Of a DNA stretch of 64,000 nt, positions 23,985-60,076 are shown in pieces. The notes below the pieces were generated by a model. The model did no database searches and was not told the DNA's origin. It saw only the letters and a list, made by a program, of their open reading frames with translations. Numbering within the stretch: position 1 is the first letter of the stretch; each line of letters opens with the position of its first letter. Made by a program: the position numbers and the translations under genes. This DNA comes from an uncultured bacterium (GTDB lineage: Bacteria; Actinomycetota; Acidimicrobiia; Spongiisociales; UBA5794), in the NCBI GenBank assembly GCA_963844835.1, contig CAWJPT010000002.1:58009-122008 (forward strand), read 5' to 3'.

Positions 23985-24190
23985 TCATTCCGCGGCTGCT
24001 TCCCTGGTCCCGGTGCGGGTCTGGTCGTTGAGCCACGCCTCGATGTCGCTGCGCCGGTATCGCACATGTCGACCGACCTTGACGAAAGCTGGCCCTTTAC
24101 CATCGATGAGCCGCCACTGAGCGAGCGTGATCGGGTGTATCCCGAGCTTGGCTGCAAGCGCGTCGGTGTGATTAGCGGGTTAATGGTCAT
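23985..24190 (-). CDS. Excisionase/AlpA-like HTH protein, frameshifted
   Basis: Reconstructed 'DALAAKLGIHPITLAQWR..GKGPAFVKVGRHVRYRRSDIEAWL'. Confidence 0.75.
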
Positions 24191-24287
24191 TGTGATCCTC
24201 GGTTGATACCGCTTGACCCGATAGTCCCACTAGGTGTACGATATGGGAAGAATGTGTCCACGTTGGCAAAACGAAAGCGAGAGACTG

Positions 24288-24787
24288 ATGACACTGGATG
24301 AAGTGATAGCAGAGAACGTGAAGCGGATAAGAAAGATTCGACGACTGTCGATCGAGCACTGGCACGGAGACTCGGGTTGAACCGCTATGTGGTCTACGAG
24401 TTTAAGGGTAGGCGCCGTGATCGACAGCAACGACCGTTTCGGTGGGTGGAGCTGGTGGACCTGTGCGCGGCTTTGCAAGTCAGCCTGTTTGAGCTAGTGT
24501 CTGCCTCAACGGGAGAAGAGATCGATCGGCCGGGGCTAGTACAGGAGTTGTGGCCGACGGACCGCGGACGCGAACTGGCAAGGACACAGGCTGCGCAGTC
24601 GCCTGGATGGATGCTGTTCGACATGGATGGGAACAAGCTAGACCAGAACACGCTGGCACGTTCGCAAGGCTTCGGAAGCGAGAGGATGACGAGATGCTCG
24701 GCGGGATAACGAGTTAATCGGGCCGATGGTGGAGCGAATTCGGCACGACTTGGAGCTTCAGCGCACTCAAGGCAGAGATGCAACTGA
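24288..24787 (+). CDS. XRE-like HTH repressor, frameshifted
   Basis: 'MTLDEVIAENVKRIRKIRRLS...LARRLGLNRYVVYE...ELVDLCAALQVSLFELV'; divergent from the excisionase. Confidence 0.65.
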
Positions 24788-24799
24788 GGAGGACAGCTA

Positions 24800-25830: not shown

Positions 25831-25832
25831 GT

Positions 25833-25855
25833 CCCACGGACACTTTGCGGACACC
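25833..25855 (+). repeat. 23-bp direct repeat copy 2, candidate integrase arm site
   Basis: Identical to 18660-18682. Confidence 0.8.
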
Positions 25856-25915
25856 CTCGAGGGTTGATAGGTCGAATAGCCCGTATTCATTAGAGGATTC
25901 GGGGCTATATACCTA

Positions 25916-25963
25916 CTCCCTTACAAGGAGGAGGTCACTGGTTAGAGTCCGGTAACACCCACG
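25916..25963 (+). repeat. att core, duplicated tRNA-Val 3' half
   Basis: 46/48 identical to 18497-18544. Confidence 0.92.
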
Positions 25964-26334
25964 CGGACCTGCTGGGGCAGGTCCGTTGACAGTTCCCTGT
26001 GGAAACTGCATCGTTGCCAGGCGTCTCAGTTCAGGGACTGTCCTGCCGGGCCCACTGAGCTTCGCTGAGTGGGTTGGAGTTGCTGCGCAACTCTGGCCCT
26101 CGCAGATCTGCCGGGGCAGGCCTACTGGCAGTTTCCTATCTGCTCAAATGACGCGCGCCAGGATCTGGCCCGCAGACGAAAGTGGACTAGACAACAGACA
26201 TCGTCTGCCGCTGTAGCGCTGAACATGTGGCTGAGAAGTCGTGGCTGAGCCAGCTGATGTTGCGCTGCTCCTGGGGTTTGGTGCTGACCCGGAAGCGAAC
26301 CCCGGGATACCGGGCGCACATGTCTTCTGTCGGA

Positions 26335-27083
26335 TCATCCTCCGGAGGACGCAGGCTCGTCCCACATGGATCGAGCCTCGACAACTACGTCTGGTCCCGG
26401 CGAGCGCAGCTCGAGCTGCTGTATCGCCTCTCCGACATTCTCGATGTCGTCTCGCTCAACCTGAACGATGACCAGTTGCCGGATCTCATCGACAAGAACG
26501 GCGCTGCGGGAGTCGCAACGTCCGTCCACAGCGGCAGCGACCCGCGCCGCCTCGTCGAGCCGTGTACGCAGATCCTCCATCGTGTACTCGACGTCCCTAT
26601 ACACGATCTCGAGATCGCTCTCGTAGGCGCCGGCAACGTTCTCGAACAAGTCCCTTGGTGCTCGGGTTGGTCTCAGAACCACAACTCTGAAACTGGGGAC
26701 ATGCTCAAAGACAACACCCGCATACCAGTCTCCGGTCGCTTCGGTCAGTCGACGGTGGAACTCCGCCGCCAGCTCCTGCTGTCTGAGCTGCAGCTCCGCT
26801 TGTTGCGGGTCGATCCCGAATGTTTCGGCGTAGGCCTGGATTGCACCCGCTTCGATCTCTGTCACGTCGCCAGAGCCGACCGAGCTCGAAGCAGCCGTCT
26901 CCACCGTTGCTGTGGGACCTGCGAACACGGGAGAGCTGGTCTCGGCGCTGACCGCTGTTGTGGTGACCTCCTCGGCAGGCGAGTCACCGGTTTCGGCGGC
27001 GCATCCCGCGAAGGAGGACCAGCGCGACGGGCGCGATCAGGGTCGTCGGGAGTGATGATGAGCGTGCTGCGTGGTTGCACCAT
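26335..27083 (-). CDS. Putative lipoprotein, frameshifted in the signal region
   Basis: Reconstructed lipobox 'LVLLAGC', Thr/Ser-rich linker, 'AYAETFGIDPQQAELQLRQQE' helical domain. Confidence 0.5.
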
Positions 27084-27215
27084 CGGCCAAGCATTGTGTC
27101 CTGTGTCCCCTCGAGGAACTCGTCTCAGCCCTTTGACGTTGCCGGACGTTGCCAAGGTTCCCCGGTTGCCGTCACTCACGATCTCCCGTTCAGCCCGACG
27201 CTGCTTGCATTTCGA

Positions 27216-28218
27216 TCAGACACCAGTGTCGGCGCCATCGCCAGGCTGCGGTTCCTGGGGCCACCAGCTGCGTCGGCCGCGTGGTTTCCCGAAGCTCTCG
27301 GGCCACGATTCTCCGGCGAGGTCGCCTGCCATGTCTCGATCTGCGTGCTCGAGCAGCGAATCGAGGTCGAAGCTGTGGTCGTCGATCGTCTCCATCAAAT
27401 CGCCTCGCTCCTCATACCGTGCGGCAAAACCGACCATCGGAAAGTCTGCGAGCTCGGCCTCCGGTACCTCATCCCAGGTCAGTGGAGCAGAGACCCATCC
27501 GGTGGGACGTACCGAGTATGCGCTGGCGACGGTGCGGTCACGGCTGTTCTGGTTGTAGTCGATGAAAACACCGTGGCGATTCTCTTTCCACCACTGTGTG
27601 GTGACGATGTCGGGCCTGCGGCGCTCGACCTCGCGGCCGAGCGCGAGGGCCGCCTTTCGCATCTCGAGAAACGTGTATCGAGGCTCGACCCTGACGTAGA
27701 TGTGAATGCCTTTCGACCCGGATGTCTTGGGAAAGCCAACCAGACCGAAGTCGGTGAGCACCTGCCTTGACCTGCAGAGCCACCTGTTGCACATCGGCCC
27801 AAACCGCCTGTGGCGTGGGATCCAAGTCGATGCGGAGCTCGTCCGGGCTCTCTACGTGCTCTGCCCGCGATGGCCACGGATTGAGGTCGACACAGTTGAG
27901 CTGGGCCATCCAGACGACGTCGGAAGGTGACCTGGGCACGAAGTAGCCGGCGGTCCGTCCCGAGGGGAACTTCACGAAGTATCGCTCGCCCGCTGAAGCC
28001 GGCGCTCGTTTCCGGAAGTACGGCCTCTCTCCGACTCCCCTGGGAAAGCACTTCAGCATGGTCGGTCTGCCGAATACCCCGGTTAGGGCACCGTCGGCGC
28101 ACGCCACGTAGTGCTCGACCAGGTCGAGCTTGGTCCACCCTTGCTCGGGGAACATCACCTTCTCAGGGTGGGTCACCTCGATCTCATCACCGTCGATCGA
28201 GAATCGTGCTTTCTCCAT
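27216..28218 (-). CDS. LigD-type primase-polymerase domain protein, frameshift near 27770
   Basis: 'VTHPEKVMFP', 'PDELRIDLDP', 'KTSGSKGIHIYV', 'FIDYNQNSRDRTVASAYSVR'. Confidence 0.88.
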
Positions 28219-28262
28219 GCGTCGATTCTGCCAGCGTGGTTGGCCTGTCGCCTGCGACGCGC

Positions 28263-28757
28263 TCAGTCGGCGCGGTGCATCACGAGGCATTCTTCGATGC
28301 CGAACAGCCGCTGGGCGCGCAACTCGGCGGGTGGGAAAGCGTGGCGCATCGTGGTCACCGGCACGACCCGCGGTTGATCGACCACAACGGTCTCGCCTTC
28401 GTAATCCAACGTCGCAGAACCGGCGGCGATGAAGTTGCGCAGCCAATCGGTTTCGGCACCGTACGGGAGACCGGTCACAAAAGTATCGTCGACGCGTGTC
28501 ACCCCGATGGGTGTCACATACGGCTTTCCGGACTTCCTGCCAGTGTGATGGAGCACCGCGGCATATGCGCCGGGCTTGCCCGCAGTCTCGAGCTGCCGCG
28601 GATTCATGTACTTCCTGTTCATGCGCCTCACCCCGTTCACTACGAACGGCACTCTGAAGCGCATGCCGAGCAGAAATGCGGCGGCGGCAGTGCCCAATAC
28701 GGCAACCGGAATCATGAGGAGTCTGCTGACTCGGTGGGTACTCGTATCACCGCACAT
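28263..28757 (-). CDS. Deazaflavin-dependent nitroreductase family protein
   Basis: 'HTGRKSGKPYVTPI', 'LPYGAETDWLRN'. Confidence 0.8.
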   Translation of the reverse strand: MCGDTSTHRVSRLLMIPVAVLGTAAAAFLLGMRFRVPFVVNGVRRMNRKYMNPRQLETAGKPGAYAAVLHHTGRKSGKPYVTPIGVTRVDDTFVTGLPYGAETDWLRNFIAAGSATLDYEGETVVVDQPRVVPVTTMRHAFPPAELRAQRLFGIEECLVMHRAD

Positions 28758-28870
28758 TTTGCTTCTCCTTCTCGCGAGATCCTTTCATCATGGCAAATGT
28801 GGCGGGCGGCTGAAAATGGACATTTGGCCGTAGTCGGGCGTGGCTTCTTTGGACAAGATGAACGGGAGTC

Positions 28871-29176
28871 ATGAGAGGAGCGGGAGTGAGCGAGGCGAGA
28901 GAGAGCACACCGGAAGAGCGGGCACAGAGGCGTGTCAAGAGGTTCACCGATGTCATGTGGCACCTGGCCACCTTCATCATCATCAACGGATTTCTTTGGT
29001 TCATCGACTTGCGCCGCGGTGGGCTCGAGTGGGCCTACTGGGTGACGATTGTCTGGGGGATTGGCCTTGCGTTCCATGTCGCTGATGCGTTCATCGGCGA
29101 TGAGGGCGCCAAGAATCGTCGCTATCGGAAGATCCTCGAGGAAGAGCGTCGTAGCGACACAGGTAGTTCTGAGTAG
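28871..29176 (+). CDS. 2TM domain protein
   Basis: 'WHLATFIIINGFLWFI...WGIGLAFH'. Confidence 0.8.
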   Translation: MRGAGVSEARESTPEERAQRRVKRFTDVMWHLATFIIINGFLWFIDLRRGGLEWAYWVTIVWGIGLAFHVADAFIGDEGAKNRRYRKILEEERRSDTGSSE

Positions 29177-29208
29177 CGGGCTGGTGTCTTCGGTGAAGGA
29201 GAGACGAA

Positions 29209-30132
29209 ATGAGCTGGAGCACTGCTGACATCCCAGACCTCACCAGCAAGGTGGCCGTTGTCACCGGCGCAAACGGCGGGCTCGGGTTTGAATCAGCGAA
29301 GGCGCTCGGAGGAGCGGGCGCACATGTTGTCATGGCAGCACGTGACCAGTTGAAGGCTCGAAGCGCCTACGACACGATCAAGGCCGCATATCCGGATGCA
29401 TCACTCGAGATCGTCCAGCTCGACCTGGGCTCGCTCTCATCGGTGCGCACTGCGACTGCTGAGATAGCGGGGAATCATCCGCAGATCGACATCCTGCTCA
29501 ACAACGCCGGGGTGATGGCGATGCCGGAGCGAAGGACCGAGGATGGCTTCGAGCTGCAGTTCGGTGTCGACCACCTCGGTCACTGGGTGTTCACCTGCGG
29601 CTTGCTGAAATCGCTCCTCGCTGCGAACCAGGCGCGAGTGGTCACGGTCACTAGCACGGCGCACCACATCGGCAGGAGTGTGAACCCGGAGAACCCGAAC
29701 CTCGACGGCGCGTACGGGCCCTGGAAGGCATACGGGCAGGCAAAGCTGGCCAACTATCACTTCGCCATCGGTCTCCAGCGCGAGTTCGAGAGCAGGGGCC
29801 TCGCCGCGATGAGCCTCGCGGCCCATCCAGGTCTTGCTCACACGAATCTCCAGGTGCGCTCGGTCGAGGAGGGTGGTGGTGGAAGAAGTGCGCCCATGTG
29901 GGCTTGGTTCGCCGCCCACATGGGCATGAAGCCGTCCGGCGGGGCACTGCCACAGCTGCGGGCCGCGACGGATCCCGCCGCACAGGGAGGCCAGCTCTAT
30001 GCTCCCCGCTTCATCAACAACGGGCCGCCGGTGCGCCGGCCGATCCTGCGGCGCATCGGGCTGCGAAGGGCTATCGAGAATCTCTGGGACATCTCTGAGA
30101 GGATGACGGACACCAGGCTCGACTTCGGGTAG
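29209..30132 (+). CDS. SDR family oxidoreductase
   Basis: 'VTGANGGLG', 'NNAGVM', 'YGQAK'. Confidence 0.92.
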   Translation: MSWSTADIPDLTSKVAVVTGANGGLGFESAKALGGAGAHVVMAARDQLKARSAYDTIKAAYPDASLEIVQLDLGSLSSVRTATAEIAGNHPQIDILLNNAGVMAMPERRTEDGFELQFGVDHLGHWVFTCGLLKSLLAANQARVVTVTSTAHHIGRSVNPENPNLDGAYGPWKAYGQAKLANYHFAIGLQREFESRGLAAMSLAAHPGLAHTNLQVRSVEEGGGGRSAPMWAWFAAHMGMKPSGGALPQLRAATDPAAQGGQLYAPRFINNGPPVRRPILRRIGLRRAIENLWDISERMTDTRLDFG

Positions 30133-30454
30133 CCGCCTGGTAAGCAGCGATAGCGGCCTCATAGTCGGATTGGTCGGCCTCAACCGAGATTTCGTGGACC
30201 TCGTCTTCGGTGAGGAACGATGACATGCCCGCCGAGTCGGCGGACGCTGCGCTGCTCACAGCATCATCTGCGGCGGCGATACCACACGCTGCCAGGAGGA
30301 CCGCAAAGCCGTGGTCAGGATGAGGAGGGGCACGGGCAGGGCACGGCGTCGAGTCATCATATCGACATGTCACCAGGCATTCATGGGAGCTGACTGGGGG
30401 GAGCCTTCGAGTCTCCTGTGAGTCGCCATCGGCAGGCACTAGTAGGGTCCTCAC

Positions 30455-30952
30455 ATGCGCAACGACTACATCGACTCTTCGATCGAGGCGTGGGAGTCGG
30501 AGAAACCGGGGCTCGACGTGGCACCGGTCGCGGTGTTCGGCCGGATCCGCAGAGCGGCTACCTTGATCGACGAGCGGATCACCTCGGTGCTCGCCCGTTT
30601 CGGAATTCGGAACACGGGGGATTTCGACACGATGGCGACGCTGCGGCGGGAAGGTGTGCCCTTCCAATTAGCACCGAAGGAGCTCTCGGTACGACTGCTG
30701 GTCACATCGGCGGGGCTCTCCGGTAGGCTCGATCGCCTCGAGGCCTCGGGATGGATCGAACGCGCCCCGCACCCAGAGGACGGCAGGGCAACCATCGTCA
30801 GTCTCACCAATGCGGGCCGGGAGATAGTCGATGCGGTACACAGGCACATTCTCGACGAATACCGCAACTCACTCAGCGGTATGACCCTCGAGGATCGTGG
30901 CGAATTGGCGACGCTACTGCGGGCGGTCCTGGTCAATCTCGGGGATTCCTGA
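30455..30952 (+). CDS. MarR family transcriptional regulator
   Basis: 'FDTMATLRREG', 'RLDRLEASGWIER.PHPEDGR..IVSLT..G'. Confidence 0.88.
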   Translation: MRNDYIDSSIEAWESEKPGLDVAPVAVFGRIRRAATLIDERITSVLARFGIRNTGDFDTMATLRREGVPFQLAPKELSVRLLVTSAGLSGRLDRLEASGWIERAPHPEDGRATIVSLTNAGREIVDAVHRHILDEYRNSLSGMTLEDRGELATLLRAVLVNLGDS

Positions 30953-41968: not shown

Positions 41969-41974
41969 TTCCTG

Positions 41975-42366
41975 TGAGCCCGGTTGTAAGCCGGATTCTG
42001 TATCCGGTCATCCGGTGTGAGGCCGGCGATCGGCGACGACCATCTATCTGGGCCCGCCATTGCTGGACGGGCTCGTGCGGCCTACCTGGGATTGACGAGC
42101 GGGCAGCTCGCTCCCTGCTTGGCCTTGCTCCTGGTGGGGTTTGCCGAGCCGCCCCGGTCACCCGGGGCGCTGGTGGTCTCTTACACCACCGTTTCACCCT
42201 TGCCTGTGCCGTGCGGCTCCATCGGCGGTCTGCTCTCTGTTGCACTTTCCGTCGGGTCGCCCCGCCTGGGTGTTACCCAGCACCATGCCCTGCGGAGTCC
42301 GGACTTTCCTCGGTCGGTGTCGCCGAACAGGTCGGCGGTGCCGAACGCGGCCGTCGGCCGGGCTCG
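41975..42366 (-). ncRNA. rnpB: RNase P RNA (type A)
   Basis: Minus strand has GAGGAAAGTCCGG, GGAAAGTGCAACAGA, GGTAAGAG, GGCAAACCCC and ACAGAATCCGGCTTAC; P1 helix GAGCCCGG/CCGGGCTC. Confidence 0.96.
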
Positions 42367-43748: not shown

Positions 43749-44482
43749 CTATGGCTTCTTGGTCTTGTTAGTGACGGGTTGTCTGGTATCGGCCTCCGCT
43801 ACCGCACCCAGGGTGTCGAGCGCACGGTTCATGCCGCGGCGCACCTCCGGGTCGCGGAGGCGTCTTGCGAGCCGGAACAGGCTCGGGGGCTTCTCGGGCT
43901 CACTCGACATCTGGGCTTGCTGACGCTGGACCGCTTCGATCATGTTGTGGAGGGCAGCCATCATCTCGGGCTGCGTCACCGACTTGACCGTCTCCAGGAT
44001 CAGCACGATGTTGTCGCCGAGTGCCTCTACGTCGTCCTCGTTGAACTCGGTGACGATCCGATCGATGACGTGCCAGCCACTCTTCACGAAGCCGAAATAG
44101 CCCTTCTGATCGAGATCGACGAGGTTGTCGGTCACGACATCCATGGCTTGCTCACTGAGTGGCATCAGATCTTTCACCAGGTCGCCGAACATCTCGAGAT
44201 AGACGAGGGCCTGGTCCAGAATGGGCGCTACCCGAATCAGGCGTCGCAGCAGGTCTGCGAAGTCGCCAAGCTGGACGTCGGCGCTGAGCTCGTCCAGCTC
44301 ACGCTCGATGACCTGGAGGAAGTCGCCTGCGATGGGCATCACATCGGACTGGAGCTCGGTCCAGACCTCACGGCGCCGTCTGGCCTGCTCCGCCTCCTGG
44401 GTGAGGAAGGCGACCTGCTCGGTCGAGGGCGTCGATCTTCGCCTCGAGCGTCGGCGGTGGCGGCAGGGGAGATGGTCGTCAT
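43749..44482 (-). CDS. DUF1641 domain protein, frameshifted near the N-terminus
   Basis: Helical protein ending 'SLFRLARRLRDPEVRRGM'; between sqr and tusE. Confidence 0.8.
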
Positions 44483-45723
44483 TGCAGGTCCTCACGGATC
44501 TTGCCTGCCATCGACATCAGCGCCGGGATAGGCATGGCCCTTCCCTCGAGGAGGACGTTCCAGTAGATCCACTTGAACATCAGCTTGCCCCAGTGGTTCG
44601 CCTCGGTCTCCTGGAGCAGCGAGAAGGGGCCGATGCCGGGGAGCGGGTACTTGCCGGGGAGCGGCTCGGTGTCGTAGTTGAAGTCGATCAGCATGCCCTT
44701 GCCGTTGCCGGACTCGATGAAGCAGTTGGCGTGCCCGTCGAACTTCGCTCGCATCGGTCTGTCCCTCGATGTAGTCGAGGAAGTTCTCGGTGAAGATGTC
44801 GATGGCGAAGTGGGCAACCGAGCCGGCCTTCGATGTCGGCAGCGCGGCCGCGTCGCCGAGAGCGAAGATGTTGTCGTGCTCGGTCGACAGGAAGTTGTGC
44901 TTGTCGACCGGGACGTGCCGGTAGTCGTCACCGAGACCGGAGCGGGCGATGTACTCGGCGCCCATGTTGACCGGGATGGTCACCAGCAGGTCGTAGTCGA
45001 CCGTGCGCTCGTCGTAGGAGACGAGCTTCCTGTTCTCGGTGTCGACCCGTTCCAGGTAGAAGTCGGGCTCCAGCTTGATCTTGCGATCGTCGAGCATGTC
45101 CCCGAGGTAGCGAGCGGCCACCGGCTTGGTGAACGCGCCCGGCAGCGGTGTCACAAATTCGAGCTGGACTGCGTCTCGCATGCCGCGCTCGTGGAAGTAC
45201 GAGTCGGCGAGGAAGATGAACTCGAGCGGTGCCACCGGGCACTTGATCGGCATCTCGATGATGTTGAGTACGAGCTTGCCGCCCTCCCAGGTCTCCAGCT
45301 TGGCCTTCGAGTGCCTCGGCACCGTCGATCGTGTAGAAGTCGAATACCGACTTGCGCCACTCATCGTCACCGAGCCCCGGTGTCTCCGAAGGTGTCGGAT
45401 GGGTGCCTGTGGCGATGACGAGGTAGTCATAGGAGAGCTCGGTCCCGTCGGCCAGCTTGACCTGGTTCTTCTCGGGCTCGACAAGATCGATCTCGCCCAT
45501 CAGCAGCTCGACGCCGTGCGGGATGAACCTGCGCTTCGGCTTTTCCAGTTCCTCGCGCTTGTAGCCACCGAAGGGGAGGAACAGGAACCCGGGTTGGTAG
45601 TAGTGAGTCTCGTTCTGGTCGACCAGGGTGATCTTCCAGTCCCGCTCGTCGAGTATCGGGGCGGAGCTTGTTGGCCACCATGGTGCCTGCGGTCCCGGCT
45701 CCCAGGACTAGCAATCGCTTCAC
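44479..45723 (-). CDS. sqr: Sulfide:quinone oxidoreductase-like FAD-dependent oxidoreductase, frameshifted
   Basis: 'VLGAGTAG', 'YQPG', 'PIKCPVAPLEF', 'FDGHANCFIE', 'NHWGK..FKWIYW'. Confidence 0.8.
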
Positions 45724-45742
45724 TGTCTTTCTCCTTGCGTTT

Positions 45743-46512
45743 CTAAGAGGCTGCTCCGGCGAGAGCAGCAATCGAGTCGAGCTTCTTGACGAGTTTCCCG
45801 TGGCCGTCTGCGAGCAGTGAGATGAGATCGCTGACGCGGGAGAGGTTCCTGACGATCCAGTCCTGGTGGGCCTTGTCGATCCAGTAGACCTCGTTGATGT
45901 GCGCCTCGATCGTCTCGATCGGGGTACCGGTCTCGGTGGCAACCGCCTCGATCTCGCTCGCCGAAGGCGGCCATGCTCCGGGGCGACGCCGCCGACGATG
46001 ACCATGCCGGCCAGTGTCGCGCCGATCCGGATGAACGAACGTGCGCAGAGGAACCCGAGATGGCTGGGCAGGAAGTGCGGCTCGAGGTCGATCTCCTCGC
46101 CGAGCTTGCGCCAGCCTGCCGAGCATCGATCCGGGGTGTACACCGCATTGAACACGGCATTGAAGTAGCCGCACGGGTTGGAGACGGTGGTGAGTGCATG
46201 GCCGGACATGTCGGTGACAACGGCCATGACCCCGAAGAGGTCGGCGGCAAGATCGGCGACTGCCTGCGCCGTGTCAGGGGGGAGTACCCGCTCGAGCACC
46301 GCGGCCCGCTCGGCGAGTTCGATCCGAGCTGGGGACCGGTGGTGCCGAATTGGCCTCGGCGCCCGAGCAGATTGGTGACCTGATCGGACGGGAAAACGCC
46401 ATTGTCTGCCGACCTTGACGGCAGGGAGGCGTCCGTCTTCGGCCATGCGATAGATCGTGGACCTATCGACCTGGAAGAGCTCTTGGACTTGTTTCGTGGT
46501 GAGCAGTGTCAT
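45743..46512 (-). CDS. Excisionase-type HTH plus PocR ligand-binding domain regulator, frameshifted
   Basis: 'LTTKQVQELFQVDRSTIYRM..GRLPAVKVGRQWRF'; PocR-like 'SNPCGYF', 'SHLGF', 'IVGG'. Confidence 0.8.
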
Positions 46513-48114: not shown

Positions 48115-49138
48115 ATGGCACCTATCACCTGGCCGGACGTCTTTGAGGACCTGCTCGAAGGCAGGGACCTCTCGCAAGCGCGCTCGAGGGAAGTCATGGC
48201 CTCGATCATGGCGGGCGAGGCCACCGAGGCGCAGATCGCCGCCTTCCTGACGATGCTGCGAAGCAAGGGAGAGACCTCCGCGGAGATGACCGGGTTTGTC
48301 GAGGCGATGCGTGCCGCGGCGCGGACTGTGACGGTGGCTGCCCCAGTTGTCGATCTCGTCGGGACCGGTGGCGATCGGTCCGGGACATTCAACATCTCGA
48401 CGACGGCGGCCTTCATCGCTGCCGGCGCCGGGGTGAAGATTGCCAAGCATGGCAACAGGGCTGCGTCATCGAAGACGGGATCAGCAGACCTGCTCGAAGC
48501 GCTTGGCATCGATCTCGAGATGGCTCCGGAGCGGACCGTCGCCATGATCGATGAGGTGGGATTCGGGTTCTTCTTCGCCCCGCACTATCACCCGGCGATG
48601 CGACACGCAGGACCGGTGCGGCGACAGCTTGGTTTCCGTACCGTGTTCAATTTTCTTGGTCCTCTCTGTAACCCTGCAGGAGCGAAGCATTACGCCCTCG
48701 GTGTCTCCGAGGCGCGGATGGCGCGGCTGATGATCGAGGTGCTCGCCAATCTCGGTGCCGAGTCGGCATTTGTGTTCTACGGTGAGGACGGGCTCGATGA
48801 GCTGACGACGACTGGGCCTTCCTTCATCTACAGGCTCAAGGGCGGTGAGATCACCCACGCAGAGTTCACCCCTGAGGACTTCCGGGTGCCACGAGCCCAG
48901 CTCGCCGACCTACTGGGTGGTGACGCGGCCGAGAACGTGTCGATCACACGCCACATTCTCGATGGGGCGCACGGGGCCGAAACGTGACATCGCCCTCGTC
49001 AACGCCGCCCCTGCGATCGTTTCGGCTGGCCTCGCTGAAGGTTTTGTCGAGGCAATGTCCGTAGCCGAGGACTCGGTCGACACCGGGAAGGCCGCCAGTG
49101 TGTTGGAGGCTGCGATCGCATTCTCGTCGAGAGGGTGA
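48115..49138 (+). CDS. trpD: Anthranilate phosphoribosyltransferase, frameshift near 48975
   Basis: 'GTGGD', 'FNIST', 'KHGNR', 'DGLDE'. Confidence 0.93.
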
Positions 49139-50859
49139 GTCCGTTGGATGGCACTAGACCATGGCAAGCGTTCTACCAGCAGGGTGTCCCTGCCGAGGTG
49201 GACTGGCCGGACGGCCCGCTCGACAGCCTCCTGCGTAGGTCTGCAAGCCAGTTCGCAGACAAGAGTGCGCTCGTCTTCTTCGACCATGAGATCACCTATG
49301 CAGAGCTCGACCGCCTCGTGGACAGCCTGGCGGCGGGTCTCCAAGACCTCGGTCTGCGCAAGGGAGATCGAGTATCGCTCTACATGCCCAACTGTCCTCA
49401 GGCAGTCATCGCCTACGAGGCTGTGTGGCGTTGCGGGGGAGTCGCCGTCCCGTCCAATCCCCTCTACACCTCTGCCGAATTCGCACATCAGGCCCGCGAC
49501 GCAGGGAGCCGCTTCGCCATCGTCATTTCGATGAACTACGAGAGGGTGAAGGCTGCCAGGGACAACACCCCGCTCGAACACGTGATTGTCACGAACATCA
49601 AGGAGTACTTCAAGGGCCCCTTGAAACTCCTGTTCACGCTGCTTCGCGAGAAGAAGGACGGCCATCGTGTCGATATCGGTGCCGATGCCGATACCCACGA
49701 GTGGTCGGACGTGCTTGCCGACCACGAGCCTGCCGAGGTCGTGGTGACGGCAGACGACCTCGCCGTGCTGATGTACACCGGAGGAACGACGGGGGTGCCC
49801 AAGGGGGCGATGTTGACTCATCGCAACATGATGGCGAACGCCCACCAGGTCAGGGCGTGGAGCCCGGAGGCGGTTGCCGGGGCCGAGGTGATGATGACGG
49901 CGTTGCCGCTCACGCACAGCTACTCGGTGACGGTTTCGATGAACCACTCGATGGCTGCCGGCTACAAGCAGATATTGGTTCCCGATGCCCGCGATCTCGG
50001 TGCGTTGCTCAAGGTCATCGATACACACAAGCCGACCTACTTCCCCGGTGTTCCCACTCTGTACTCGGCGATCGCCCGTCACCGGCACGTCAAGAGCGGC
50101 AAGTACGACGTGTCATCGATCAGGTGGTGTCTCTCCGGGGCGGCGGCGCTTCCCCCCGAGGTGAAGCGCAACTTCGAGGAGCTCAGCGGCGGCTTTCTTG
50201 TTGAGGGATACGGTTTGAGCGAGGCTTCACCAGTTACCCACGCGGTGCCGCTGGATGGCTCGGGGCGCGCTGGCTCGATCGGCTTTCCGATCTCGAGCAC
50301 AGACTGCAGGATCGTCGACGAGGACACCGAGACAGAGGTGATGGGCATCGGCGAGCGCGGTGTTCTCTGTGTGAGCGGTCCCCAGGTGATGCAGGGTTAC
50401 TGGAACATGCCGGAAGCAACGGCAGATGTGTTGCGCACCGATGAGCAAGGAACGGTGTGGCTGCACACGGGGGATATCGCGGTCATGGACGAGGATGGCC
50501 GCGTCGCCATCGTGGATCGCAAGAAAGACATGATCCTCGCCGCAGGCGGTTTCAACGTGTATCCCCGTGAGGTAGAGGATGCGCTCTTCGAGCATCCAGA
50601 CGTTGTAGATGTCGGCGTCATCGGCGTTCCGGTAGGCAGCCCAGACCAGAGAGTGAAGGCGTTTGTCGTTCTCGAAGATGGGAAGACGGTCGGCGAATCT
50701 GATCTGATCGAATTCTGTCGGGATCGGCTTGCCCGGTACAAGGTGCCCCGTACCATCGAGTTTCGTGATGAGCTTCCGAAGACGTTCGTCGGCAAGGTGC
50801 TACGTCGGGAGCTCATGCAAGAAGAGGTCGAGAGGCAGGCAGCGGGCGACACCGTGTGA
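49135..50859 (+). CDS. Long-chain fatty acid-CoA ligase
   Basis: 'YTGGTTGVPKG', 'EGYGLSE', 'HTGDIA', 'LPKTFVGK'. Confidence 0.92.
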   Translation: MSPLDGTRPWQAFYQQGVPAEVDWPDGPLDSLLRRSASQFADKSALVFFDHEITYAELDRLVDSLAAGLQDLGLRKGDRVSLYMPNCPQAVIAYEAVWRCGGVAVPSNPLYTSAEFAHQARDAGSRFAIVISMNYERVKAARDNTPLEHVIVTNIKEYFKGPLKLLFTLLREKKDGHRVDIGADADTHEWSDVLADHEPAEVVVTADDLAVLMYTGGTTGVPKGAMLTHRNMMANAHQVRAWSPEAVAGAEVMMTALPLTHSYSVTVSMNHSMAAGYKQILVPDARDLGALLKVIDTHKPTYFPGVPTLYSAIARHRHVKSGKYDVSSIRWCLSGAAALPPEVKRNFEELSGGFLVEGYGLSEASPVTHAVPLDGSGRAGSIGFPISSTDCRIVDEDTETEVMGIGERGVLCVSGPQVMQGYWNMPEATADVLRTDEQGTVWLHTGDIAVMDEDGRVAIVDRKKDMILAAGGFNVYPREVEDALFEHPDVVDVGVIGVPVGSPDQRVKAFVVLEDGKTVGESDLIEFCRDRLARYKVPRTIEFRDELPKTFVGKVLRRELMQEEVERQAAGDTV

Positions 50860-50941: not shown

Positions 50942-51484
50942 ATGCGCAGACTGCTCGGGCTCATCGTCATGGCACTCCTCATCACCTCGTGTGGTGACGC
51001 CGGTGCGGAATCGGTGACGACGGCGTCGACGCTTGCAGACACAACGACGCAACCTGCGCCGACGAGCACAACCATCGACGATTTGGGCCCGGCAGCGCCT
51101 GATTTTACGCTCGAGCTCGCCGACGGTTCTACCTTCACACTCTCAGAGGCGCAGCACCCGGTATACCTGGTGTTCTGGGCTGAGTGGTGACCGGTCTGCC
51201 AACGGGAGCTTCCCGTTGTCGACGCAGTTGCGGCGGATTACCAGGACAGCATCACCTTTGTTGCGGTTGCGGGCCGTGCCGGCATCGAGGCGACTCGGGA
51301 ACGTGCCCCGACACTGTTCTCCGACAATCTCTTGTGGGGTCTCGACGAGTCCATCTGGGACCTGTACGGCATCGTGGGCCAGCCGGCGACGGTGCTGATC
51401 AAGGACGGTGTGATTATCGACCGCTGGTACGGGGCAGTCGGCGAGGCGGAGTTGCGAGTGCGGCTAGATGGACTAGCGGGATAG
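50942..51484 (+). CDS. TlpA/redoxin-like lipoprotein, probable selenoprotein (UPVC motif)
   Basis: Lipobox 'LITSC', 'APDFTL', 'FWAEW-TGA-PVC'; the same frame stays open after TGA (51188-51190) through 'LYGIVGQPATVLI' to TAG at 51482-51484. Confidence 0.82.
51200..51218 (+). promoter_or_regulatory. Candidate bacterial SECIS hairpin
   Basis: CAACGGGA-gct-TCCCGTTG, beginning 10 nt after the in-frame TGA. Confidence 0.55.
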
Positions 51485-51493: not shown

Positions 51494-51523
51494 GAGGGCC
51501 GGGCCACATCAGACCCGGCCCTC
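51494..51523. terminator. Hairpin between convergent genes
   Basis: GAGGGCCGGG...CCCGGCCCTC. Confidence 0.6.
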
Positions 51524-51525: not shown

Positions 51526-52520
51526 CTACGGTTTGTCGTCGGCTGCTACGAGTCCAAGGCAGCCTTTATCTCCGGGAGCCGAGCCGCAATGTCCGGGTCG
51601 ACCGCCGCAAGATTGTCGGCGATCTGACCCAATGTGATGATTGGCGGCATGATGATGATGAACGGGCCATTGCCACTGCCTGATATCTGGATGGAACTCG
51701 GCAACAAGAGTTCCCTGATCAAAGGTGGCGTTGGCGAGAAGAACCGCTACGTCGAGATTGATCGTGTAGGTCGTCCCACCTGCGGCATAGAATCCCGCGG
51801 TCGTCGAACAGCTTCTGATGTCGCTGTCCACAACACTGTTGGACATCTGCGATCCATCGAGGATGTCCGCGCCGGGGTTGCCGTCAATGTCGTCGACGGA
51901 GACCTCGCAGAACGAGGCTCCTACGGTGGCGTTTCCAATGATCCCCGTCGTGCCGTTCACTGTTATCCATCCGTTGATCGGTGCCGTCATCTCCACCGTC
52001 ATCAGCGTGTCAACCGCGACGAGACCGGACGATAGCGTGATGCCGTCACCGCTCTCGTCAATGGTGTATGCCATCCGAGTCAACTCATTGGCGTCGTAGT
52101 TGTCGACGGTATCGGCGTTGGTCGCACTGTCGGCATCGGTTGCATGGTCGGCTTCGGTAGCATGGTCGGCTTCGGCAGGGGTCCCGTCCTCTGCGTCGAT
52201 GTATTGGGCAAATCGCTGCATGAACGCAGCCATCTGGCCCCGAGTCACGTTGTCAGTCGGGCAGAACAGTGTGTTGTCGGGAGGATTACAGCCCTTGGTG
52301 ACGCCGGCACGACGCCAACCACTCAATGTTTGACTCGAAGATCGAGTCGTCGTCGTCGGTGAATGTGCCGCCGGCCGCGATAACGGCAACGGGAGCGACA
52401 GGCTACAACCAGTGCGAGAACCAGGGCAGATGTCAAAGACTGCGGTGATTACGGCAATGACCAAGAGTCTCAATCTTGAAATGGCCGGCCGCGAGTGCTT
52501 CGTGCGCTTTATCCAAAAGA
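51526..52520 (-). CDS. S-layer homology (SLH) domain secreted protein, frameshifted
   Basis: 'FTDDDDSIFESNIEWLA' plus 'GVTKGCNPPDNTLFCPTDNVTRGQMAAF'; 'ADHATEADHATDADSATNAD' 6-residue repeats. Confidence 0.75.
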
Positions 52521-52537
52521 TGGGATCTCCTTCCCAG

Positions 52538-53494
52538 TCAGCTCGAACTACGAGGATGCGAGATTGAAACATGTTTGAACAGACGTCCCTGATGAGAGCA
52601 CGATCGGAACGGCGTGATACGCCTTTCGAGAGAATCGCAGACATTTCCGATCCATCCCCACATCCTGCAGCCCAACCTAATCACTATTGCTGGCACTTGG
52701 GTGGATGCTCTGCGTGTTTTCTGTAGGAAACGATCGCCAATCGTCGGCAAGGGGGTCGAACCAGGAGAGCTCAGCTGCCGGGAGGGGTCGGTGTCGTCTC
52801 TGGTTTCGTAGCCTGATCCGGCGTGAACCGACCAAATGATCAGGGCAATACCGAGTGCCATCCCGACCAGATACCATTCCACCGGTCCGCCACCAAGTGT
52901 CGGGCGGAGCGGCTCGGTCACGAGCCGTACGAGTGCCGCATAAGCCAGCGCTGACCCGGCAGCGACACCCGGTTTCAGCAGGCTCCTGGAGCGCAGCACG
53001 GCCAACACGATCGCACCGGCAAGCAGGGCGAGGGCTGCGTAGATCTCAACGGGATGCCGGGTGATATCGCTGCCGCTCTGCGCAAACGCCCAGGGGAGAT
53101 CGCTGGGAGTGCCTAGGCAGGTGCCCCGCACCAGGCATCCGCCGTGCCATCCGGCAAGGCCGGCGAGCGCGGCAGGCGCCAAACCGTCGACCACCGCAAA
53201 GAGCTCGGAGCGGCCCAGCCACGCCACGGTCGCCAGGGCCGCTAGCGCTGCGGGGCCCGTGGCGACACCACCGCGGACGATGAGGATGTCGAAGGGGTGC
53301 GTGATCGGGTTGACCCCGGCGCCGATCATGGCGGTGAGCCGGCCGACGACGAGGCCGGCCATCGCCGCGGTGAGCCCGATATCCCACAAGTCGCGGGTGC
53401 ATGACGCGGCGTTGCCCCGTCTCGCCTCCCAGTACAGAACGAGATAGAAGGGGACGATGCCCATAGCTACCGCTCCGACGAGGGTGAATTCCAT
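52538..53494 (-). CDS. Prolipoprotein diacylglyceryl transferase-like protein; C-terminal extension uncertain
   Basis: 'GCLVRGTCLGTPSDLPWA', 'RHPVEIY', 'RLVTEPLR'. Confidence 0.75.
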   Translation of the reverse strand: MEFTLVGAVAMGIVPFYLVLYWEARRGNAASCTRDLWDIGLTAAMAGLVVGRLTAMIGAGVNPITHPFDILIVRGGVATGPAALAALATVAWLGRSELFAVVDGLAPAALAGLAGWHGGCLVRGTCLGTPSDLPWAFAQSGSDITRHPVEIYAALALLAGAIVLAVLRSRSLLKPGVAAGSALAYAALVRLVTEPLRPTLGGGPVEWYLVGMALGIALIIWSVHAGSGYETRDDTDPSRQLSSPGSTPLPTIGDRFLQKTRRASTQVPAIVIRLGCRMWGWIGNVCDSLERRITPFRSCSHQGRLFKHVSISHPRSSS

Positions 53495-55958: not shown

Positions 55959-56539
55959 GTCGAGCCCTTGGTGGAGGCGAGACCGCTGCGGCGAGGATCG
56001 ATCTCGACGGCGGTGCGCACGGCATAGGCGAGCGCCTTGAAGGCGGCCTCGGCGATGTGATGATCGTTGCGCCCCGTTGCGGTGATGTGCAAGGTACAAC
56101 CTGCGGTCCTTGCGAACGCTTCGAGTGCGTGGGGAATCATCTGGGTGCCGAGAGCGCCCATGCGCTCGGTGGTGAAAGGCAGATCGATCACGGCGTAGGG
56201 GCGGCCCCCGATGTCGACGACGGCGGTGGCGATCGCCTCGTCCATCGGTATCGTCGCCGTCCCGTAGCGACGGATACCGGCCCGATCGCCGAGCGCCTCG
56301 GCAAACGCCGATCCCAGAACGAGCGCAGTGTCCTCGACGGTGTGGTGCTCGTCGACATGGAGGTCACCCTTGGTCGTGATGCTGAGGTCGAAGAGACCGT
56401 GGTGCCCGAAGGCCGTGAGCATGTGGTCGTAGAAGCCGACGCCCGTGCTCACCGAGACCTCGCCGCTGCCGTCGAGGTCGAGGGTGATGGAGACATCGGT
56501 TTCGAGCGTGTTGCGCTCGACGGACGCCGTTCTGGTCAT
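55955..56539 (-). CDS. hisB: Imidazoleglycerol-phosphate dehydratase
   Basis: 'DHML', 'DEHHTVED', 'NDHHIAEAAFKA'. Confidence 0.96.
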   Translation of the reverse strand: MTRTASVERNTLETDVSITLDLDGSGEVSVSTGVGFYDHMLTAFGHHGLFDLSITTKGDLHVDEHHTVEDTALVLGSAFAEALGDRAGIRRYGTATIPMDEAIATAVVDIGGRPYAVIDLPFTTERMGALGTQMIPHALEAFARTAGCTLHITATGRNDHHIAEAAFKALAYAVRTAVEIDPRRSGLASTKGST

Positions 56540-57593
56540 GGGAGATACCTTTCGAGTGTCTTGATCAAACGTGAGTTGGCTTCAGCGGAACGAACCGTGA
56601 AGCGGAGATAGCCGGCAAGCGGGCCATCAGCGGCGAACCGTGCGCACCACGAGGCCATGACCCATGAGCTGCTCGCTCAATCGGTGGGCGTCGCTCCCGA
56701 CCTCGCACAGGACGAAGTTGGTCTCAGAGGGAAGTACCCGCAAACCAAGCCGGGCGAGCGCGTCGCCCAGTGACTCTCGCAGTTGCCGGATCTTGCGCAC
56801 ATTTACGGCCATTATCTCGGGTCGTTTCAGAGCAGCGACAGCGATCTCGACGGAGATCGACGAGATGCTGCCGGGGGGTCGAATCCCGTCGACGGCTGCA
56901 ACCAGGCTGGGGTGAGCCATCGCATATCCGACTCGTGCCCCTGCTATCCCGAACGCCTTCGAAAGGGTTCGCAATACCATGGCGTTGTGATGACGGTCGA
57001 CGAGGTTCGACCAGTCGCTGTCTCCAAACTCTGCGTAGGCGGCATCCACGACAACAAGCCCGTCTGTCGCCGCGATCAGGGCCTCCACGGCGTCGGGGGC
57101 CACTGCATTCCCGATGGGGTTGCTGGGCGCGCACACCCAAACCAGATCGGCATCGCGAGCTGCTCGGATCATCGCGTCGGCGGGATAGGCAAACTCGGGG
57201 GCGGCAGCGGGCACCGGCTGGAACACCGCCCCGACCTGTGCCGTCGCGATTTCATAGAGCGGATACGTTGGCGTTGCCGCCACGGCCGTGTCGCCCCGAT
57301 CCGAGAAAGGCGCGGGCGGCGAGCAGGATCAGCTCGTCGACACCTGCGCCAGGGACGATCTGGTCGGGTTGCAGACCGGTCAGTTCGGCCGCAGCCTCGC
57401 GTATCGGTCTGTAGCTGGCCCCCGGGTACTCGTTGACCCGGCGCAGTGAGTCGGTGGCAATGTCGATCAGCCCAGTCGGTGCGGAATGGCGAGGTGTTGT
57501 GGTCGAAGCTCTCCACCTCATTCGACTCGCAGCCCGGTACGTGGCTGCGATCTCGGCGGTGGTGGGCTGCCACTGGTAGCGCGGGGCGCTCAT
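56536..57593 (-). CDS. hisC: Histidinol-phosphate aminotransferase, frameshifted
   Basis: 'GAGVDELI', 'PSNPIG', 'DAAYAEF', '[15 protein letters not shown]'. Confidence 0.88.
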
Positions 57594-58908
57594 GGCTCTT
57601 CCTCGAACCGAATCTCGGCGGCGAGCTTGTGTGCGGTGAGACCCTCGGCGTCGGCAAGGGCCGCGATGGTGGGACGAAGTGCGGCGAGGCCTTCCTCGGT
57701 CAGCGTCTGCACCTGTCGCCACGAGCCGAAGTCCTCGACACTGAGCGGGCCGTACGCCGCAGCCAGCCCGCCGGTGGGGAGAACGTGGTTGGCTGCCGGT
57801 GGCGTAGTCGCCGGCCGACTCGGGAGCCCAATGGCCGACGAAGACCGACCCGGCCGCGGTGGTGCGCAGCGCGTCTCGCTCCGAGTCTCGAGTGTGCACG
57901 GTGAGGTGCTCGGGGGCGTACTCGTTGGCGAAGGCGATGGCCTCGTCGATGAGTCTCGGTGATGACGATGAGCCCGTGATCGCCGAGTGCGCTCTGTACG
58001 ATCTCGCTGCGCTCGAGCCGGGGGAGGAGCGCGTTGATCTGCTGCGAGCACCGTCGCCGCGAAGCGGCATCGGCGAGTGACGAGGGCCACCGGCGATTCC
58101 GGGCCGTGCTCGGCCTGGCACATCATGTCGGCGGCGATGATCCGCGGATCGGCGGATCGTCGGCGAGCACGAGGGCCTCGCTGGGGCCGGCGGGCAGGTC
58201 GACCCCGGTGTCACCGTAGACGGCGAGCTTGGCCGGCGGTGACCCAGGCGTTGCCGGGCCCGACGATCTTCTCGACGGGACGGATCGTCTCGGTGCCGTA
58301 GGCGAGCGCGCCGACCGCCTGGGCGCCTCCGGTGATGTAGACCTCGTCGACGCCGAGCATCGCCGGCTGCTGCCAGCATCGCCTGCGAGACATTGCCGCT
58401 CTCGTCGGCGGGGCTGGTCACGACGATCTCCTGCACACCCGCCACCTGTGCGGGGATGACGCCCATCAGCAGGCTCGACGGGTAGGCGGCGCGGCCTCCC
58501 GGGACGTATACGCCGACGCGCCGCAGCGGTGTCCAGCGGCGATCGATACGGACGCCGGGGACCGTCTCGACGGTCTCGTCGACTGGGGTCGCTGCGGGCG
58601 AGTGGGCTCGTCGGATGTTGCTTGCGGCATTCTCCAGGGCGATCCGCACCTCGGGGTCGAGTGTCGCAAGTGCCTCTGGTGAGGCGACGCGGCGTCGACG
58701 CGGAGCGTGCCGTCGGCGTTGCCGCCGCCGTATGCGGCAGTTGGCAGTCGCGCAGCGCCGCATCGCCACCGGTCCGGATCTCGTGTGACGATGGCGGCCG
58801 CGGCAAGTCGCATGCTCAGGGTCGGGGACCGCCGAGCGCTGCAGCACCGCCCGTCTTCTCGGCAGGCGACGAGTCGACGAGGATGATGGTGTTGATCTTC
58901 ATGGTCAT
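57590..58908 (-). CDS. hisD: Histidinol dehydrogenase, multiply frameshifted
   Basis: '[14 protein letters not shown]', '[10 protein letters not shown]', 'PAGPSE', 'QAEHG', 'YAPEHL', 'NHVLPT'. Confidence 0.9.
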
Positions 58909-59759
58909 CGCGATGAGTTGGTCGATGGGCAGTACCAGGATCCCGCTGGCCCCTGCTTCCTTCAGCTCGGGGAGTACCCGGCCGAGTCGGGCCGAGTCGA
59001 CTACCGAGTGCACCGCAACCATGCCGTCGTGGGCGAATGGGATGACGGTCGGTGCTTCGAAACCGGGGATCAGCTCTTCGATGGTGGCGTACGGCATCGG
59101 CGGGCGCGTTCATCATGACGTAGCGCTTGCGGCGGGCGGCGACGACCGAGCGGATCGGTCACGATCACCTGGCCGATGGTGCCGTTCGATTCCGACATGC
59201 CCGGTCTGCCGACCAGTACCGCCTGTGACTCGAGGATGTCGGCGATGGGCCGGAGGCCGTTGATCAGCATCGTGGAGCCGCTCGAGACCAGATCGACGAC
59301 GGCATCGGCGATGTCGAGCTTTGGGGCAACCTCGACCGATCCGCTCAGCGGCACGGTGGTGACTGCGATGCCCCGTTCGTCGAAGAACCGCTGGGTGGTG
59401 GCTGGATGGGAGGTGGCGATCCGGGCGCCTTCGAGCGCCTCGAGCGAATCGATCTCTGAGATCCGGGGCACGGCGGCGGTGAGCCTGCAGTGGCCGTAGC
59501 CGAGTTGCTCGATGATCTCGAGTTGCTGTCCGCCCTCAGTGAGCAGGTCGATGCCGGTGATGCCGAGGTCGGCGACCCCGTCTGCGACGAACTCGGCGAC
59601 GTCATCGGTGCGCACGAAGAGCACCTCGAGGTCCATGTTGCGCACCGGCACGGCGAGGGCTCGCTCGGTCTTCTCGTACGAGAATCCACCCTGTTCGAGC
59701 ATGGTCGCGGTTGGTTGCTGGAGCCGTCCTTTGTTGGGAACGGCGAGTCGGATGGTCAT
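58905..59759 (-). CDS. hisG: ATP phosphoribosyltransferase (long form), frameshifted
   Basis: 'LAVPNKGRL', 'DLGITG', 'GSVEVAP', 'DLVSSGST', C-terminal 'LKEAGASGILVLPI'. Confidence 0.92.
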
Positions 59760-60076
59760 TGCTTCTCCTGGCCGGTGTGAAGCCGTTGAGGCGATCGAGC
59801 ATTGCTTGGTAGCCGCCCGTCCCGTGTCGCAGCCACTGGTTGATGCGAACGATGGTGGCGGTGGAAACGCCGGTTTCGGTGGCGATCTCACGGTAGGGGC
59901 GGCCCTCGGCGAGCTTGCGCACAACCGCCCAGCGTTGCGACATCTCTTCGAGCTCACGGCGGGTGCACAGGTCGCGGAAGAAGTGCGCCGCGTCCTCCCG
60001 GGTGTCCAGGGAGACGATGGCGTCGAAGAGGGCCGCGGTGGCGTCGTTGCGCCAGTCCTCGGTTTCGCGTCACCAT
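59756..60076 (-). CDS. YerC/YecD (TrpR-related) regulator, frameshifted
   Basis: 'FFRDLCT..ELEEMSQRWAVVRKL..G.PYREIATETGVSTATIVRINQWLRHGTGGY'. Confidence 0.88.

Follow-up and report, generated by a model that had tools for sequence, protein, structure and literature searches.

A predicted selenocysteine-containing UxxC redoxin lipoprotein and its SECIS-like hairpin in uncultured Acidimicrobiia

The DNA considered here, referred to throughout as the window, is a stretch of 64,000 nucleotides from an uncultured member of the Acidimicrobiia (Actinomycetota; contig CAWJPT010000002.1 of assembly GCA_963844835.1), and our subject is a gene at positions 50942-51484 whose reading frame is interrupted by a TGA codon. 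The gene starts MRRLLGLIVMALLITSCG and reads ...PVYLVFWAEW-TGA-PVCQRELPVVD..., such that the TGA stands at the first cysteine position of a redoxin motif. A sequence-only reading of this region had proposed a hidden selenoprotein, pointing to the placement of the TGA, to a further 97 open codons that include a 'GQPAT' loop, and to a perfect 8-bp hairpin following the TGA. These observations are all recovered: in translation the TGA lies in frame within ...LVFWAEW-TGA-PVC, the frame stays open for 97 further codons to a TAG at 51482-51484, the GQPAT loop is present and its proline aligns with QQPA of the mycobacterial protein DsbF, and the two arms of the hairpin (51200-51207 and 51211-51218) are 100% complementary around a 3-nt loop, GCT. 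With the TGA read as selenocysteine (Sec, U), the features of the gene are as follows.

50942..51484, + strand: predicted selenoprotein coding sequence, 180 codons plus the TAG stop, with the TGA at 51188-51190 read as Sec.
50942..50992, + strand: predicted lipoprotein signal peptide, MRRLLGLIVMALLITS-C, with lipobox ITSC and Cys17 as the predicted lipidation site (from the translation).
50993..51076, + strand: Thr/Ser/Ala/Pro-rich low-complexity linker, approximately residues 18-45 (predicted local distance difference test score, pLDDT, 57-69 over residues 1-50).
51077..51481, + strand: predicted TlpA/ResA/DsbE-like thioredoxin-fold domain, approximately residues 46-180 (AlphaFold2, Foldseek and phmmer).
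51188..51190, + strand: in-frame TGA, predicted Sec83, the presumed attacking residue of the U-P-V-C motif (Cys in homologs, TGA in orthologs).
51197..51199, + strand: TGC, Cys86, the cysteine of the UxxC motif presumed to act as the resolving residue (shared by all 123 aligned sequences).
51200..51218, + strand: hairpin resembling a selenocysteine insertion sequence (SECIS), lying within the coding sequence at codons 87-93, with an 8-bp stem and loop GCU.
51383..51385, + strand: CCG, Pro148, presumed cis-proline of GQPAT (invariant in 123 of 123 aligned sequences; precedes strand 149-154).

Related loci were collected by scanning genome contigs for the pattern [YF]LVFWAEW, which matched 165 stretches; 155 of these were confirmed and the best 80 kept, nearly all on contigs titled as Acidimicrobiia or Actinomycetota metagenome-assembled genomes. 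Together with the window they make up 81 genes, and the TGA-bearing members of this set, 75 in all, were aligned and are referred to below as Sec forms. In the best 80 of the 155 loci, the codon following ...FWAEW is TGA in 74, TGC in five and TGT in one, figures that give no unbiased ratio of Sec to Cys since the scan pattern was built mainly from Sec-form sequences. The TGA-bearing loci are independent assemblies of different species. A search of a 5.8-billion-protein collection with the read-through product returned 63 matches, of which 43 are full length and carry W-C-x-x-C at the motif column. The other 20 are short gene calls of 103-198 residues that carry no Pfam domain and end, without exception, in ...FWAEW, from which it follows that independent gene callers stopped at the same codon in diverged organisms. 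Alignment of orthologs thus bears out the expectation that TGA and Cys codons would alternate at this position. Alternation of UGA with Cys at a redox nucleophile is the signature by which bacterial selenoproteins are defined.

Such conservation bears directly on the most mundane account of an in-frame stop, namely that it is a sequencing or assembly error, or a recent nonsense mutation in a pseudogene, and that the true or ancestral codon is TGC or TGT. Either codon lies a single substitution away from TGA, and the window does carry frameshifts, for example in trpD near 48965-48975; moreover, 19 open reading frames (ORFs) of the closest related locus, L001, match the window, seven of them in more than one frame. 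These other defects, however, are frame switches of the indel type and not substitutions, and the redoxin gene itself aligns with L001 in a single frame over residues 1-180, at 79% identity. An error or decaying gene is further contradicted by the 20 independent database gene calls that stop at the same codon, by the apparent purifying selection on the downstream frame, and by a hairpin and a synonymous-site pattern that are specific to TGA forms, both considered below. Since 74 of the 80 loci, each from a separate assembly of a different species, have this TGA, the account is effectively refuted, and we regard it as highly improbable.

The frame beyond the TGA behaves as coding sequence. In 73 of the 74 TGA loci, 97-106 codons follow without a stop (L026, the exception, runs off its contig), and the spacing from the TGA to the downstream Cys is invariant in the aligned TGA forms. 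Pooled over 645 pairs of Sec forms, differences at codon positions 1, 2 and 3 number 14,810, 11,350 and 33,845, respectively, and across the 97 downstream codons the window and L001 differ at 18 codons synonymously and at 12 non-synonymously. Trp82, Cys86 and Pro148 are invariant across all 123 aligned sequences. From these patterns, the region after the TGA appears to evolve as protein and under purifying selection.

The read-through protein is matched by the Pfam families AhpC-TSA (47.5 bits, cut-off 26), Redoxin (40 bits, cut-off 26.6) and Thioredoxin (34.2 bits, cut-off 23.5). AlphaFold2, run with the 123-sequence alignment, returns one domain with pLDDT of approximately 94-98 over residues 51-180, and places residue 83 between strand 74-79 and helix 84-97, with U83 and C86 at the start of the helix. 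Foldseek finds DsbF, ResA, DsbE, StoA, Etrx1/2 and SdbA with a probability of 1.00 and TM-scores (template modeling scores) on the target of 0.72-0.89. The best structural match is Mycobacterium tuberculosis DsbF (3ios; TM-score on target 0.86, 34% identity), which by phmmer is also the best solved relative by sequence (3e-15). In the model, the two halves of the ORF together form one thioredoxin fold that spans the TGA. A peroxiredoxin identity was considered and rejected: the PxxxTxxC/U motif, as PMC13188914 describes it for that family, is absent, L-V-F-W-A-E-W preceding U83 with no Thr at -3, and the second Cys lies at +3 from U83, as in redoxins. With regard to export, Cys17 is near-invariant in the ortholog alignment (A1), and a lipobox-like signal was found in all 81 genes with a relaxed custom pattern rather than a dedicated signal-peptide predictor. 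The linker that follows is poorly conserved and varies from 9 to 87 residues among orthologs, with a median of 47 by script estimate.

A continuous fold is difficult to reconcile with the proposal that the gene is split, such that translation truly ends at the UGA with a lipoprotein of 82 residues, the C-terminal part being a separate product or not produced. The 20 database entries of 103-198 residues that end ...FWAEW might be taken at face value as support for such a short product. The stop, however, would interrupt the active-site motif and cut a single compact domain between strand 74-79 and helix 84-97, and neither half would fold on its own. The TGA is followed by no start codon, the next in-frame ORF with a start lying at 51332 and measuring only 50 codons. 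The invariant spacing between TGA and downstream Cys and the existence of the Cys-bearing relatives as single polypeptides likewise speak against two separate products, and we hold a split gene to be very unlikely. Taken as a whole, the gene at 50942-51484 very probably encodes an exported thiol-disulfide oxidoreductase of the TlpA/ResA/DsbE type, held to the membrane by a lipid anchor and with a predicted Sec site, W-U-P-V-C.

Immediately 3' of the TGA lies the hairpin. In the window, the base of its stem is 9 nt past the UGA, the distance from UGA to loop is 17 nt and the minimum free energy (MFE) is -16.2 kcal/mol. RNAalifold, applied to the 75 Sec forms, yields a 6-bp core stem that starts 10 nt past the UGA and closes a loop, AGUUG. 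Compensatory changes are seen in two of the six core pairs: alignment pair 20-36 is GC in 60 sequences, AU in 9 and GU in 4, and pair 23-33 is GC in 69, AU in 4 and GU in 1. When the stem is drawn with seven pairs, 94% of cells pair, vs. 38-75% when the partners are slid relative to one another. Double-change cells within the stem number 13 against 2.1 expected, a value reached by none of 500 shuffles, although these shuffle statistics are inflated by kinship among the sequences.

Codon choice over the stem is similarly constrained. Arg at +5 relative to the Sec codon is CGG in 70 of the 70 Sec forms with Arg at that position, Glu at +6 is GAG in 73 of 75, and Pro at +8 is CCC in 70 of 75; Leu at +7 is TTG in 66 of 75, while the upstream Leu at -7 is TTG in only two of 75. 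Cys86, for its part, is encoded by TGT in 48 Sec forms and by TGC in 27. The six Cys forms have mixed codons, and other residues, at the stem positions. Synonymous sites that are frozen exactly over the stem point to an RNA-level constraint in addition to that on the protein.

Criteria for bacterial SECIS (bSECIS) elements, those of the bSECISearch consensus model, are set out in the Fig. 2 legend of PMC13188914: a loop of 3-9 nt with a G in its first two positions, a stem of 4-16 bp, a UGA-to-loop distance of 16-37 nt, and an MFE of -7.5 kcal/mol or below. The window hairpin and those of 70 of the 75 Sec forms agree with all four criteria, as does that of only one of the six Cys forms. The window element shares with the model a stem-loop just 3' of the UGA whose loop starts with G, and the orthologs share with it a stem of 6-7 bp, the loop AGUUG and a spacing of 16 nt. 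It differs from the model in being very small, in lying at the short end of the allowed spacing and in having no Rfam counterpart. A scan of the whole window against Rfam returned no SECIS family match, its sole finds being RNase P RNA and tRNA-Val; Rfam covers bacterial SECIS elements poorly, according to a recent preprint (10.64898/2026.04.03.716425).

Three individual loci depart from the common pattern. The L001 hairpin (L001:10247-10291) lacks the loop G, and a differently placed 5-bp stem is found at L003:10127-10171; both loci keep the TGA and the open frame. The single Cys form counted as agreeing with the bSECIS criteria is L047, which has a 6-bp hairpin with loop GAG situated 15 nt past its Cys codon (L047:709-753) and which may represent a fossil SECIS left by a recent change from Sec to Cys.

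We looked for the machinery of Sec decoding in the window and in the flanks of the 80 loci (1.27 Mb, or 1.33 Mb together with the window). ARAGORN found no tRNA-Sec in any of the 81 sequences, the only tRNA being tRNA-Val, and Pfam searches of the 64-kb window and the 80 flanks found no SelA, SelB or SelD. Over the full 1.33 Mb, tblastn with the Escherichia coli K-12 SelA, SelB and SelD proteins (taken from L081/L082) gave no match at E <= 1e-3, and a six-frame scan for short SelB and SelA motifs found none. Genes of the sel set are usually unlinked to the genes that they serve, so their absence from these flanks says little; Sec decoding by this organism is something we infer, the sel genes having been searched for in the window and the flanks only.

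The code itself offers another way to account for an in-frame TGA, namely that across the lineage UGA has come to specify a standard amino acid, as it does in codes 4 or 25; such a reassignment would fit the toleration of in-frame UGA in many related genomes. It is contradicted by the use of TGA as a stop. In the window, TGA closes 27 of the 33 Pfam-supported ORFs (a few of these ends may be frameshift artefacts), and 41 of the 74 complete Sec-form genes themselves terminate with TGA, some 100 codons past the recoded one. A window-wide screen for in-frame TGA with a filter on third-position G+C returned 62 rows, including the redoxin gene; none of the other 61 stands in a redox-motif context, and most of them either lie in a frame overlapping some longer ORF or run across two neighbouring ORFs that share a frame. 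TGA is a normal stop in the window, and reassignment is refuted by this usage; we give it next to no credence.

A closer competitor is programmed read-through of the UGA without selenium, whereby the hairpin would aid insertion of Trp, Cys or Arg by a near-cognate tRNA, or some other recoding event, with no Sec machinery involved. Stop-proximal hairpins can, in general, promote read-through; no sel gene or tRNA-Sec was found in the window or the 1.27 Mb of flanks; and the L001 loop lacks the G that the SECIS model calls for. This proposal does not explain, however, why Cys, specifically, should be the residue that UGA alternates with at the nucleophile of a redox motif, nor why the geometry of the element should fit the bSECIS model in 70 of 75 Sec forms. 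A CxxC enzyme would be inactivated by Trp or Arg at this position, and yet the remainder of the domain shows the marks of purifying selection; the missing sel genes count for little where linkage is not expected. Sec machinery is, moreover, documented in a sister order of the same class. Read-through without selenium therefore seems improbable to us, if less so than the other alternatives.

The sequence-only reading had called Sec use uncommon in actinobacteria. This part of it has to be tempered, as Peng et al. (2016; PMC5029168) list actinobacteria that use Sec, and the preprint cited above reports selA, selC and selD together with a divergent selB in all 84 complete genomes of Actinomarina, which belongs to another order of the Acidimicrobiia (10.64898/2026.04.03.716425). 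Among the literature matches listed for Acidimicrobiia in combination with selenoprotein or selenocysteine, that preprint was the only relevant report, and no literature was found that combines selenoprotein, SECIS, thiol disulfide and Actinobacteria.

Several points weigh against reading this gene as a SECIS-directed selenoprotein. On energy alone, the window hairpin is unexceptional for G+C-rich sequence (z = -1.26, with 22 of 200 shuffles folding equally well or better), and for that z-score we rejected single-sequence folding energy as evidence for it; what sets the hairpin beyond chance is the comparative evidence of shared TGA, pairing, double changes and near-frozen synonymous sites. 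Five of the 75 Sec forms fail the bSECIS criteria on their MFE fold, and the closest relative, L001, has GAA for GAG in the loop, giving the loop ACU without the required G. Because the stem overlaps the codons for a conserved peptide, R-E-L-P-V, its conservation is in part that of the protein. The sampling behind the figure of 74 TGA among 80 loci is biased, both by a pattern derived from Sec forms and by the restriction to the best 80 of 155. Frameshifts in other genes of the window mean that base-level assembly quality is not perfect. The window and the 80 flanks contain no Sec machinery, the sel genes being unlinked to the redoxin gene, and no neighbour of the CcdA/DsbD type was found among the genes scanned, with neighbourhoods that differ between loci. 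Finally, what the protein acts on, and whether as reductant or oxidant, is guesswork. Set against these points are the alternation of Sec and Cys, the apparent purifying selection, the covarying hairpin of bSECIS type, the single predicted fold and the lipobox-like signal in 81 of 81 genes, and on this combined evidence the earlier proposal of a hidden UxxC selenoprotein, an exported lipoprotein redoxin, holds as a prediction.

UxxC redoxin selenoproteins have been predicted for approximately two decades. Those catalogued in Table 1 of PMC13188914 include TlpA-like (cd02966), Redoxin (PF08534) and AhpC-TSA (PF00578) groups, and the Global Ocean Sampling (GOS) survey lists similar ones (PMC2398784). 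Like the window protein, these families have a thioredoxin fold, Sec as the first residue of UxxC, Cys homologs and a SECIS just downstream; they too are predicted, and the same Pfam models match the window protein. The comparison is one by description, and the passages on these families in the sources contain no lipoprotein signal, no Acidimicrobiia and no hairpin of the present kind. As UxxC TlpA-like selenoproteins are already catalogued, the redoxin opens no new kind of system. Among protein family models, NF041054 (WAxxUGC_long) describes a ResA/TlpA-like protein in which Sec is likewise preceded by W-A-x-x (W-A-E-W-U in the window). Membership was rejected: the protein scores 31.8 bits against a cut-off of 300, matches part of a 354-position model and has U-P-V-C, not U-G-C.

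The best solved relatives, DsbF (3ios) and DsbE/MPT53 (1lu4; phmmer 1.9e-10) of M. tuberculosis, are similarly actinobacterial, with a W-C-P-x-C motif and a conserved proline loop, and are extracytoplasmic, as the window protein is predicted to be; they differ in carrying Cys, and their identity to the window protein is only about one third. The same fold is seen in Bacillus subtilis ResA (TM-scores on target of 0.80-0.89 for ResA chains). As ResA proper (NCBIfam NF002854), the protein was rejected at 48.7 bits against a cut-off of 170, although this is nonetheless its best NCBIfam match. ResA, the proteobacterial CcmG/DsbE, TlpA and Etrx1/Etrx2 are all membrane-tethered extracytoplasmic reductants that carry Cys and not Sec, and Etrx1 and Etrx2 of Streptococcus pneumoniae are exposed surface lipoproteins according to their PDB titles. 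Neither ccdA nor resB nor resC was seen beside the redoxin gene among the genes scanned.

How such a protein might be made and used can be sketched by analogy with these systems. In bacterial Sec decoding, SECIS-bound SelB brings Sec-tRNASec to the UGA. Here, the stem-loop would serve as the SECIS: by binding SelB-GTP-Sec-tRNASec it would supply Sec to the UGA, with release factor 2 competing for the codon. Export of the preprotein in an unfolded state, lipidation at Cys17 and removal of the signal peptide would follow, leaving the domain tethered by the flexible linker to the outer face of the cytoplasmic membrane. Sec83 would attack substrate disulfides (or sulfenates), and Cys86 would resolve the intermediate to a selenenylsulfide. 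By analogy with TlpA, ResA and Etrx, we lean slightly toward a reductant that is re-reduced through a membrane electron carrier of the CcdA/DsbD type. The alternative is an oxidase role, as for mycobacterial DsbE and DsbF, which are reportedly oxidases.

The surroundings of the gene are less informative. Of the best 80 of the 155 loci, 42 have trpD upstream of the redoxin, 67 have an AIG2-like gene in its vicinity and 36 have an lgt homolog at a distance of up to 10 kb. No gene for an electron donor or a substrate recurs consistently beside it, and no function can therefore be derived from the neighbourhood. In related loci trpD usually abuts the redoxin gene, whereas in the window an AMP-binding, fatty-acid-CoA-ligase-like gene (fadD; 49135-50859, + strand) lies between the two, an arrangement shared by only 6 of the 80 loci; this fadD-type gene is probably a lineage-specific insertion shared with L001. 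Downstream, lgt (52538-53494, - strand) lies some 1 kb from the lipoprotein gene on the opposite strand, a proximity that may be coincidental. Two loci carry a ccmF-ccmH cluster, which serves cytochrome c maturation of the system I type, on the other strand 2-6 kb downstream of the redoxin gene (L037:12461-16154, - strand, and L056:12546-16160, - strand). The third gene of the L056 cluster encodes a 199-residue AhpC-TSA/Redoxin protein, such that this genome encodes at least two TlpA-like redoxins close together; the matching 202-residue ORF of L037 has no Pfam match. A ccm cluster that has a redoxin of its own speaks against the Sec protein being the reductase of cytochrome c maturation.

Two further features of the window may be listed.

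51494..51523, no strand assigned: perfect inverted repeat (10-bp stem, 10-nt loop) separating the stop of the redoxin gene from that of a convergent ORF (51526-52644, - strand).
41971-42366, - strand: bacterial RNase P RNA class A, full length (Rfam, 255 bits).

The inverted repeat is a possible two-way terminator; it lacks a T run, and a consensus terminator scan did not pick it up. Elsewhere, a number of genes show broken frames. trpD (48115-49135) passes from frame 1 to frame 2 when compared with the intact TrpD proteins of 340 and 341 residues in L024 and L013; a 568-residue ORF of L001 (of the helix-turn-helix/PocR type in the window) maps to 44482-46184 in five pieces and three frames; and the hisC/hisD region (56531-59984) switches frames. 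These breaks are either assembly indel errors or real pseudogenes, and some may lie in L001. An ORF at 4050-4637 (+ strand) covers only the C-terminal third of an ATP-dependent phosphoenolpyruvate (PEP) carboxykinase (Pfam positions 319-465 of 465), and where the missing N-terminal part would be expected there is instead an alpha-amylase gene of the opposite strand (1513-3840); the fragment is a gene remnant, a rearrangement or a misassembly. Finally, tRNA-Val (18469-18543) is followed by approximately 12 kb of ORFs (18469-30667 including the tRNA) with a third-position G+C of 0.50-0.64, vs. 0.70-0.80 elsewhere. Almost none of these ORFs has a Pfam match, except an AAA_25 ATPase at 22418-23872, and the segment looks like a mobile element integrated at a tRNA gene.

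Returning to the redoxin, its evolutionary history was approached with a quick tree of 123 domain sequences in which all rows were kept, the Sec rows stemming from the DNA scan and most of the Cys rows from the search of proteins. The tree is poorly resolved and mixes Sec and Cys forms: at least nine changes between Sec and Cys can be counted on it, of which well-supported branches force only one. We would tentatively entertain, without favouring it, the possibility that the Sec form is the usual and perhaps ancestral state across a large part of the non-marine, G+C-rich Acidimicrobiia, with one minimal and near-invariant SECIS dictating the peptide C-x-R-E-L-P-V; under such a history, the Cys clades may be secondary losses.

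The predicted selenoprotein has consequences beyond this single gene. An entire orthologous group is mis-annotated, in that each of the 20 Sec-form calls found ends at the UGA and carries no domain, and truncated annotations of this kind cause the redox and selenium metabolism of uncultured Acidimicrobiia to be under-counted. The finding also places a predicted Sec in a predicted lipid-anchored enzyme outside the cell membrane of actinobacteria, and the compact natural SECIS, with its 75 variants, offers a dataset on the mutual constraint of RNA signal and protein sequence. If the Sec form is the usual, and perhaps ancestral, state, Sec decoding would be widespread, and so far unreported, in the abundant Acidimicrobiia of soils and sediments, and the redoxin would be a hallmark exported selenoprotein that is cut short in nearly every public annotation.

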